This document shows, in pieces, positions 30,162-34,946 of a DNA stretch of 64,000 nucleotides (position 1 is the first letter of the stretch; each line of letters starts with the position of its first letter). This stretch comes from Eimeria praecox (Eukaryota), in contig OY986946.1 in the NCBI GenBank assembly GCA_963920595.1, positions 2,356,001 to 2,420,000 of the forward strand. Reading direction: 5' to 3'. The notes beneath the pieces were generated by a model. That model was not told where the DNA came from and did no database searches. It saw nothing but the letters and a program-made list of their open reading frames with translations. A program made the position numbers and the translations under genes.

Positions 30162-33100
30162 TTTACAATAAATGATATTTTATCATTTTCAGTCATCTAA
30201 GAACCCCAGAAGGTAATTTTGCGCTCTCTTTTGTTGCGCAGAATTTACCGGCTGGGTTCGCGCGTCAGTGTCAGTGCCTGCGGCCGGTGCAAATCGGCTG
30301 CAAATCCTTCTCCTTTTTTATAATTCTTTTTTCTATAGCATTTAAAACATCAAATTTTAAAAGATGGAAGAAGAAGAGGTGAAAAAGGATGCGGTTTCAC
30401 CGCTGAACTCAGCTGCGCCCATGCGGCCCCCACAGCCGCAGCCGACTGCTCGGCCGAACAGCAGTTCAGCATTGAAAGAGGGCCCTTCTGGAATTATAAT
30501 TGCAAAACCAAGGACCTCCAGCAGCCGCAAAGAAGGAAAGGACTCAGAAGATTCTCAAGACGAGGAGGAAATGCAGATCTGCGAGCCCGCCCCACACATG
30601 GATCTGCCGCAACAAGACCCGTCTCCATGCAGTGAGGAGATAGAAGTAGAGCAGATGCTAGATACGGCAACTGATAATCAGATAGTCCCAGGTTCGATTC
30701 CCAGCAGGGAAACGGACGCTGATAGTCTACAACAACAGCCAGAGGGATTGCCAGAGCTCGATAGCGATACCTCGATCTGTCCTGTGGATACAGGACAGCT
30801 CGAAGTGTCGAACTCTACAGCCGTAGCAGATACCGTAGAGGCTCAAATGGTGGAGGAAACGGCTCACGGCCCCCAAGCAGCAGAGGAGAGCTGCCCTGAT
30901 AATGGGCAACAGCAGCAAGGGGGGCAATCTACAAGCCCTGCGCGGCTCATCAGCTTCAGGGATCTTGTCCGCCAGTTTGTAGAAGAACGCAGAGCCAGAA
31001 ACCTTACACCAGACGGAGAGGGGGAGTCACAGCAGTTAGCAGATGGCAGCAGCATACAAAAGGACAGCGTAGCTCCAGTGTTCAACTGGGGACAAAGGAG
31101 CAACGCAAATTCAGCAGAAAACACCCCAGAGAGCATCAACAGAACGCCAAAGGGGGTGGCCACACAGCCTGTCTGCTGCCCCAACTGCAAACGTGTATTC
31201 AACTCCGCAAGGGGGCTCTCCCTTCATACACGTAGGGGAGGAAAAGGCAGCTGCGCTCTGAGGAGAAGAGAAATCATCAATGAATGTCAGAACGTGGCAA
31301 CCCCCGCGCCGTTGACGTTCCGTCTCAATAAGCGCATCCAGGAGGAAGCAGATGAAGATGTAAACGAATTGGGTGATAGACCCCGTCTAGCAAAAAGAAG
31401 AAGGGGACGAAAAGCACCTACACAGGGCCCCCCAGAGCCGACTCCTACAGAAATGGCAGGGGATCGTGCGATGGCGGGCAGACAGGCAACACCGGCAGCA
31501 ACAGCAGAGCAGCACAGGCCTACAACAACCGACGGAGAGGCGCTGCTCATAGATAAGTGGCCGGAGAGAGCTCAACAGCAGAGGACCGACCCGATCACGC
31601 GTCGAAGACCACTTCGAATACCTCGTCTAACAGCAGAAGCGGGCGCAAGGCTTACAAGACAACTGATGGAACTTGCGCAAACTACTGCTACCAAGATGGT
31701 CGACAGCACTTGGGAAGAAGTGGAAGCCGCAGTAGAAGGCTTCGCTACCCAGCTTTATGATGCGATTTGGTTTGCAGATAAGAACACTAAGGAAGCAAAT
31801 CAACGTGGCAAGAAGAACAAGCCCTCAACGAACACCGAAGACTCAGGAATCCGAAAGACACGCGTGTCCCCAAGGCAGGCTCAAGCACAGGAAAACGTCG
31901 ACAAGGCGTTGCAAGCACTCCGAGCAGAGGAGAGAGCCCAGCAGGGGAAACAATCTGGAGCATCGCTTGATGATAAACTGAAGAAGCGTGCCCTTGAAAG
32001 AAATCTACGAACTGCGCGTCGTCGCCTCATCATGATCCTCAAAGAAGAGTCAGCACAAAATCTCCAAGCACTCTACATGAAAGACAGAAAGAAGTGTGTG
32101 GAGCAACTACTAGCTGACGAAGATCAACCTAGAAGCCAAGATTGTCCCATCCAACTCAGTGAGCTGGAGGCACACTTTAGAGATCAGCACTCTGAGCAAT
32201 TAATTGACTCCACTTCTGATGTTGCTCATGAGTTCTTAGACCCTTTGGCTTCAGCTCCTAGTGGAGCGTGTGCGATTGATCTATACTTCACAGAAGAGGA
32301 TGTGCGTGCTCAGCTGCTAAAGAGCAACCTTAAGTCTGCAGCAGGGCCAGATGGGATAGGGTTTTTTGTGTACAAGAGGTTTGAAGAGGTGCTTGTTCCA
32401 GCCATGACCGCGATATACAACGCGTGTTCTCGGCATCGACGTATTCCAGAGAAGTGGAAGGAAAGCGTGACCGTTTTGATTCCCAAGCAGGGCGATCCTA
32501 ACGATGTGAAGAATTGGCGACCCATCAATCTACAGGACTGTATCTACAAACTTTATGCAGCACTGTGGGCCAGCAGGATTACGGACTGGGCATCACAGTC
32601 CGGGGTCGCCTCCAAGTCGCAGAAGGGATTCATGCCAGTGAATGGGTGCCATGAGCACCTGTTTCTTGCCCAAAGCATCCTCAACTCCACGCGCAGAGGC
32701 TCGAAACCGCTGTACATGACGTACTACGACTTGAAAAATGCATTTGGATCCGTTCCCCACGAGCTCATACACGTTGTCTTGAAGGCTCAACGGCTACCGA
32801 AGCACGTTCGTGAGATCATCATGGATCTCTATCAAGGAGCGAGCTTCTGCGTAGTGACGAAGGAGGGCTGCACAGGTCGAATTGAGAACCGACGAGGAGT
32901 GAAGCAAGGGTGTCCTCTCAGCCCGATCCTCTTCAACCTAGCCATTGAGCCTCTCCTGCAGAGATTAGCAGCTTGTGATGCAGGCCTCGAACTGCGTACG
33001 ACAGACGGGAGACCGCCTGTGAAGGTCTCTCACATGGCGTATGCAGACGACCTCAAGACGGTTGCTAGTACTCGAGCAGGAATTTCTACACTTCATCAAG

Positions 33101-34946: not shown

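Follow-up and report, generated by a model that had tools for sequence, protein, structure and literature searches.

An intact, likely mobile non-LTR retrotransposon of probable Utopia ancestry, antisense in the 28S rRNA genes of Eimeria praecox

The rDNA array and the element within it

The window (the whole 64-kb stretch of DNA analysed here) consists of tandem rDNA units encoded on the minus strand, with matches to five LSU, four SSU and four 5.8S genes; no match to a 5S gene was found in the rDNA unit. A first, sequence-only reading had described the setting as coccidian rDNA. This is borne out by the two E. praecox ITS1 primers, whose sequences were taken from the available part of PMC11067301 and which both match exactly in 4/4 ITS1 copies, while none of six primers for five other chicken Eimeria species matches the window within 2 mismatches. 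Gene models named E. praecox also match the open reading frame described below at 83–93% identity. Among the units, SSU copies differ by 0–2 bases and the spacers are about 99% alike. The unit that carries the full-length element (28993–38349) is a variant with 39 private substitutions, plus indels, across the 28S, 5.8S and ITS. Set against the three other units, 19 of these substitutions lie in the 28S (3467 bp), to either side of the insert, 19 in the ITS (883 bp) and one in the 5.8S gene (154 bp), whereas the SSU gene (1796 bp) has none. The ITS of this unit, whose SSU and spacer are homogenised with those of the others, has diverged about four times faster than its 28S (Fisher P 4e-5), so that the variant unit resembles a second rDNA type under constraint more than a product of neutral decay. 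The intergenic spacers carry a subrepeat with a spacing of ~860 bp and 80% identity, plus long (TA)n runs, the first spacer having one copy fewer. Three plus-strand stop-to-stop frames of 155–224 aa recur in every spacer (e.g., 7692–10060) and are probably spurious.

Table 1. Features of the 64-kb window
Feature	Position	Strand	Remarks
28S gene with truncated copy	12005..18593	-	common unit type
28S gene with full-length copy	28993..37312	-	variant unit
Intergenic spacers	5191-12004, 21429-28992, 40146-47690, 53998-61524		6.8-7.6 kb each
5'-truncated copy	13106..16227	+	3122 bp; no difference from 31825-34946
65-bp tandem duplication of antisense 28S	30094..30158	+	exact copy of 30029-30093
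Full-length non-LTR retrotransposon	30162..34946	+	4785 bp; antisense to 28S; compared with the empty sites at 48778 and 62612
5' UTR	30162..30363	+	202 nt; three predicted hairpins
Single uninterrupted ORF	30364..34749	+	1461 aa; from ORF listing, Pfam, motifs and fold models
3' UTR	34750..34946	+	197 nt; joins ACGTCATAG of antisense 28S directly
Empty target site, 28S helix 69	48778..48810	-	bases 48792-48796 lost in filled sites
Empty target site, second	62612..62644	-	
Helix 69 stem	48797-48815 and 62631-62649	-	

The full-length copy, when compared with the empty sites, has neither a poly(A) tail nor a target-site duplication. Its single ORF consists of a variable low-complexity N-terminus, a zinc finger, a helical pre-RT region, the RT, a thumb, a CCHC knuckle and a PD-(D/E)xK endonuclease. 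Pfam matches were obtained to RVT_1 (aa 706–934, E 6e-32) and zf-RVT (aa 1237–1283), and the RT motifs QGCPLSP and YADD are located at aa 848 and 893. The N-terminal zinc finger is single (C-x2-C-x12-H-x8-C, aa 272–297), the CCHC knuckle spans aa 1264–1281, and the restriction-like endonuclease (RLE) spans aa 1329–1370, with RPD-x14-D at 1329 and KEEKY at 1366. The intact 1461-aa frame with RT, CCHC and nuclease motifs that had been noticed from the sequence was thus upheld by ORF, Pfam and motif checks. One ORF combining an RT, a CCHC knuckle and a PD-(D/E)xK endonuclease is the architecture of RLE-type non-LTR elements, as are the 3' junction fixed in 2/2 copies, the 5' truncation of one copy and the lack of LTRs.

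Folding of the 5' UTR is well above that of shuffled sequences (z -4.28, with 0/200 shuffles equally stable), and folding of the 3' UTR is at shuffle level (z -0.21). A ribozyme was sought in the 5' UTR, with no match in Rfam and 0 hits to an HDV-like descriptor of our own, which also gave 0 hits in 20 shuffles and had no positive control. No promoter was identified for the element; a sigma-70 scan was set aside as not applicable to an Eimeria host. Near the 3' end of the element, CCTTAA at 34934–34939 repeats six target bases at the junction, perhaps by chance or as the remnant of an earlier junction.

Insertion site and evidence of recent movement

The element interrupts the LSU rRNA gene in helix 69 and is antisense to the rRNA. 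On the plus strand the empty sites read GGCTACCT TAAGA ACGTCATAG. In both filled sites the target is broken after GGCTACCT, the 3' end of the element is joined straight to ACGTCATAG without a tail, and the five target bases TAAGA are missing. Two of the four scorable sites are filled, and the site of the fifth unit lies just outside the start of the window. Read in the rRNA sense, the 3' junction precedes the canonical R2 site by 8 nt and belongs to the 3' arm of helix 69. To the extent that it is retained, the helix 69 stem of each of the four sites is GGACG/CGTTC, and the Rfam consensus is GGGAG/CTCTC, so that Eimeria has two compensated pair changes at the insertion junction.

The 5' junction of the full-length copy is marked by the 65-bp tandem duplication of antisense 28S, and the TAA that directly follows the duplication likewise matches the target. 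A target-site duplication was rejected as the source of this repeat because both of its copies lie 5' of the insert. A 9-nt stretch of the 5' UTR is complementary to the upstream antisense 28S, but the match is weak (shuffle P 0.01–0.03).

The evidence for site-specific insertion consists of two copies in one 64-kb window. The truncated copy lacks the first 1663 bp of the element and agrees with the full copy at all 3122 bp, an identity that has a probability of 4e-8 at the divergence rate of the 28S. Its 3' junction and lost target bases are the same as those of the full copy, and its 5' break has a one-base microhomology. The inserts are identical but their flanks differ, which argues that the truncated copy is not a duplicate of the full-copy unit; identical inserts in differing rDNA units indicate separate, recent target-primed insertions. 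The simplest reading of the two copies would be a separate target-primed insertion at the same base, although gene conversion restricted to the insert could also account for their identity.

A broader form of this alternative holds that the element is intact but immobile, and that rDNA recombination and gene conversion have spread its copies and kept them identical. Such arrays do homogenise, as the near-identical SSU genes and spacers of this window attest, but here the two inserts are identical while the flanks on both sides differ, a 5' truncation with its own junction requires a separate integration, and silent variants dominate in the coding sequence; immobility is accordingly considered improbable. 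The variants were taken from public contigs, with runs holding small shares of the stretch left out; of 28 variant rows, 6 were dropped (4 private to run X21 and 2 in the UTRs) and 22 were left. The raw-read run X21 itself was set aside, its 36 reads all fitting in part only and reaching 6/30 bins. A residue is changed by 9/22 coding variants, compared with 72–77% expected by chance (P 3e-4 to 2e-3), and by only 3/13 from residue 460 on (P 6e-5 to 4e-4). The N-terminal variants, 6/9 of which change a residue, are no different from chance and carry no purifying signal. No stops or indels occur among the listed public-contig variants.

Arrays of rDNA are hard to assemble, and an assembly chimera or a contaminant might be suspected for this reason. 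Against this, the two copies have differing 5' junctions at the same base, and the stretch recurs in public data. Part of it occurs in 18 of the 23 public sequencing runs listed, and near-identical DNA, amounting to at least half of its words, occurs in five runs from four studies, one of which may be the window's own source. No RNA run is listed among those containing it, a result that speaks neither for nor against expression. The contigs of two runs cover 30/30 and 29/30 bins of the element, and orthologues are annotated in E. praecox, E. necatrix, E. mitis, E. maxima, E. brunetti and E. media. An artefact of this kind is therefore exceedingly improbable. The element is real and intact and, judging from these comparisons, likely recently mobile and genus-wide in Eimeria; the earlier description of it as potentially active holds, on the strength of two identical copies in differing units, one of them 5'-truncated.

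Relatives and clade placement

Near-length relatives at 63–79% identity include proteins of E. necatrix and E. mitis, with a weaker piece in E. brunetti, and E. maxima, E. praecox and E. media are represented by shorter matching pieces. Below these Eimeria relatives the next protein matches fall to at most 40% identity. Full-length relatives with every motif intact are P0003–P0007, P0284 and P0286 (E. maxima cluster), P0290 (E. mitis cluster) and E. necatrix ENH_00016420. In two sets of full-length Eimeria-clade proteins, 6/6 and 4/4 retain all the catalytic motifs along with the N-terminal finger, and pairwise identity among full-length proteins of the clade is 52–72%. Several relatives are located on contigs of 4.4–5.3 kb, about the size of one element, and two on contigs of 19.2 kb, about the size of an rDNA unit plus an element; these sizes hint at a shared rDNA habitat, and are only suggestive of it. 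Translated rDNA was sought in gene models, with scattered 6-mer matches alone, taken as chance, and none in ENH_00016420.

Decayed copies are represented by the E. praecox gene models at 83–93% and by E. necatrix pieces on scaffolds of 99–102 kb. One E. praecox model, P0141 (EPH_0055280), fuses rDNA-spacer sequence (matching window positions 28536–28643) to a decayed copy of the element (91%) in the opposite orientation, and this fusion suggests that some older copies may lie elsewhere, in or beside the rDNA spacer.

In the RT tree, the Eimeria clade (SH-aLRT 100) and two sister proteins (97) join oomycete proteins in a clade of 21 rows (99), which nests among turtle, arthropod, nematode, sponge and Ciona proteins in a clade of 41 rows (95). 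This tree was built by quick search from 41 selected proteins plus 20 metagenome RTs out of 32 usable, with SH-aLRT support and without bootstrap; it contains no labelled R2, R5/LIN or NeSL-1 sequences, and its outgroup is not one clean clade. A FastTree of 119 rows agrees with the Eimeria–oomycete grouping. The oomycete partners were taken as Utopia not by name but by an RNase H upstream of the RT, which was present in 3/3 oomycete-type proteins scanned and is described as unique to oomycete Utopia in the available part of Kojima and Jurka 2015 (PMC4640811). Four proteins from Logan and JGI contigs (P0014, P0016, P0015 and P0017) branch as sister lineages intermediate between the Eimeria clade and the oomycete Utopia elements, and P0015 carries three N-terminal fingers.

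Oomycete Utopia elements are the nearest named relatives, at 33–37% identity, and resemble the Eimeria element in having a single ORF with an N-terminal zinc finger, RT, CCHC and RLE, a precise 3' junction and variable 5' junctions (PMC4640811, in the part available). The domains that characterise Utopia (N-terminal zinc fingers, one to three in number, together with RT, ZF and RLE) are all found here, with one finger. The characteristic target is not: both copies lie in 28S, and no U2 snRNA gene was found in the 64-kb window. Unlike Utopia, which targets U2 snRNA genes and has RNase H in its oomycete families, the Eimeria element is antisense in 28S, is without RNase H and has an apicomplexan host. 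By sequence it is best described as a NeSL-clade element of Utopia ancestry, though with a different target, and not as R2.

The Eimeria element nevertheless resembles animal R2 in its domain order, fold, 28S neighbourhood and small target deletion, and, according to the part of PMC3774820 available, in having upstream target sequence tandemly duplicated at a 5' junction. It differs from R2 in its reverse orientation, its shifted site and a first nick that would be on the other strand, and in having no detected Myb or HDV-like ribozyme and no use of a Pol I co-transcript. That it might be a true R2, inverted or re-targeted, is suggested by the proximity of the two sites, by the assignment of Eimeria hits to an R2 class by MGEScan (PMC9141347, in the part available), and by the match of its RT-to-C-terminal part, in sequence and predicted fold (mean pLDDT 68), to R2 proteins as the best of the solved structures, although R2 and L1 were the sole non-LTR proteins among the matches in that library. 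By bit score, which is unaffected by database size, R2Tg reaches 230 bits, compared with 550–570 for the oomycete proteins. An inversion would not yield two clean, identical 3' junctions, and the accessible portion of a 2026 survey reports no R2 from unicellular organisms (PMC13188248). The same portion gives Myb after ZnF1 as an R2 hallmark, the lack of which is used to call Utopia over R2; no Pfam Myb was detected in the ORF at E<=1, and none appeared in a model of residues 265–647, which shows ~110 disordered residues after the finger and then long helices with no PDB match. The pTM of 0.28 for this model leaves some room for a diverged Myb. An R2 standing antisense and 8 nt off the canonical site is, on this evidence, a very unlikely identity for the element.

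The planarian elements LIN9_SM, LIN24_SM and LIN26_SM, of the R5/LIN lineage of the NeSL clade, are also RLE elements antisense in 28S (PMC4640811, S6 figure), and antisense targeting by this clade is thus already in print. In the same figure their sites differ from that in Eimeria, LIN24/26 lying ~79 nt upstream and LIN9 ~540 nt downstream in the rRNA sense, and LIN24/26 end in T-tails, which the Eimeria element lacks. No planarian protein is among the nearest matches listed, which suggests that antisense 28S targeting likely arose convergently in the Eimeria element and planarian R5/LIN. What is new in Eimeria is the insertion site, the host phylum for the lineage and a live example of antisense rDNA targeting.

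A metagenome scan for the flanks of relatives gave 80 loci, none above 31% identity, and viral and prokaryote collections gave none; no Rfam RNA genes were found beside the 20 metagenome loci scanned of the 80. One of these loci, L001, whose flanks hold no RNA gene by Rfam scan, has a 3018-aa open frame with its RT near residue 2080 and an RLE-like end, and is unusually long for its class.

Prior records and a proposed mechanism

Eimeria belongs to the Apicomplexa, a group considered almost devoid of functional transposons. Its retrotransposons have been described as degenerate chromovirus-like LTR fragments that are unlikely to work (PMC4199364 and PMC7564333, in the parts available). The sequence-only reading had likewise held that Eimeria is known mainly for LTR elements and degenerate fragments. 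This agrees with reviews but not with Rodriguez and Makalowski 2022 (PMC9141347), the available part of which already lists 17 MGEScan hits in Eimeria under the class "LINE R2" and is silent on their target, orientation, clade, integrity and activity. These hits are probably pieces of the present family. Prior description of the element, which that reading had named as grounds for abandoning its claim of a hidden LINE, was not found beyond these uncharacterised hits; the literature search behind this did not extend to Repbase, Fell 2025 or Table S6 of PMC9141347. Eimeria is not mentioned in the available text and 10 supplement files of PMC4640811 or in 12 of the 16 supplement files of PMC13188248, and there is nothing on the element in the portions available of PMC13580325, PMC5035012, PMC10946416, PMC8869645 and PMC5537684. 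The suggestion that short-read assemblies had hidden the element stood in part: its context was lost, but pieces of it and one near-complete ORF had been annotated as hypothetical proteins. The antisense orientation, exact site, truncated second copy and 65-bp duplication at the 5' junction go beyond what had been noticed before.

Taken together, these comparisons point with good confidence to an intact site-specific NeSL-clade non-LTR retrotransposon, nearest to oomycete Utopia, that lies antisense at one position of the Eimeria 28S and is likely still moving by target-primed reverse transcription. The junctions suggest a first nick by the endonuclease in the rRNA-sense strand, placed within the 3' arm of helix 69 after ...CTATGACGT. 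In R2 it is the opposite strand that is nicked first. With the freed 3'-OH as primer, the element RNA would be copied into cDNA; the other strand would break 5 nt away, at the cost of the bases TAAGA, and early stops of reverse transcription would leave 5' truncations joined by microhomology.

Excision from the Pol I pre-rRNA, the route of R2, is closed to an element in this orientation, which would need an antisense transcript. Such a transcript would most likely start ~68 nt upstream within the 28S gene, a position that would explain the 65-bp tandem duplication and towards which the analysis leans slightly. For R2, RNAs that contain upstream rRNA-gene sequence are recognised by tandem repeats of the upstream target next to the 5' junction (PMC3774820, in the part available). 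A template jump onto the nicked target DNA would explain the repeat nearly as well, there being a single such junction.

The lineage probably switched its target from U2 snRNA genes to 28S, and the hosts and targets of the sister lineages P0014–P0017 would date this switch. A more comprehensive scheme, in which a Utopia lineage came from an SAR ancestor, moved from U2 to antisense 28S helix 69 in early coccidia, is active across Eimeria, starts its antisense transcript within the rRNA gene and has evolved in step with its site (two compensated helix 69 changes at the presumed nick), is tentative and, as a whole, doubtful; if true, the element would be the first active site-specific apicomplexan transposon and a natural opposite-strand counterpart of R2.

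An intact and apparently mobile site-specific family across Eimeria would change the picture of degenerate LTR elements in this genus and shows where such elements hide. Two questions become testable with it: the way in which RLE elements switch target, here from U2 to 28S as well as between strands, and the expression of an rDNA element without a Pol I co-transcript. RLE proteins are under development for gene insertion, and the Eimeria protein adds a new site and strand preference to this set. Insertion polymorphisms could double as strain markers.

The U2 target and the antisense 28S upstream of the junction have an 8-mer in common, located 15 versus 8 nt from the nick; judged by eye, this apparent resemblance is a lead only.
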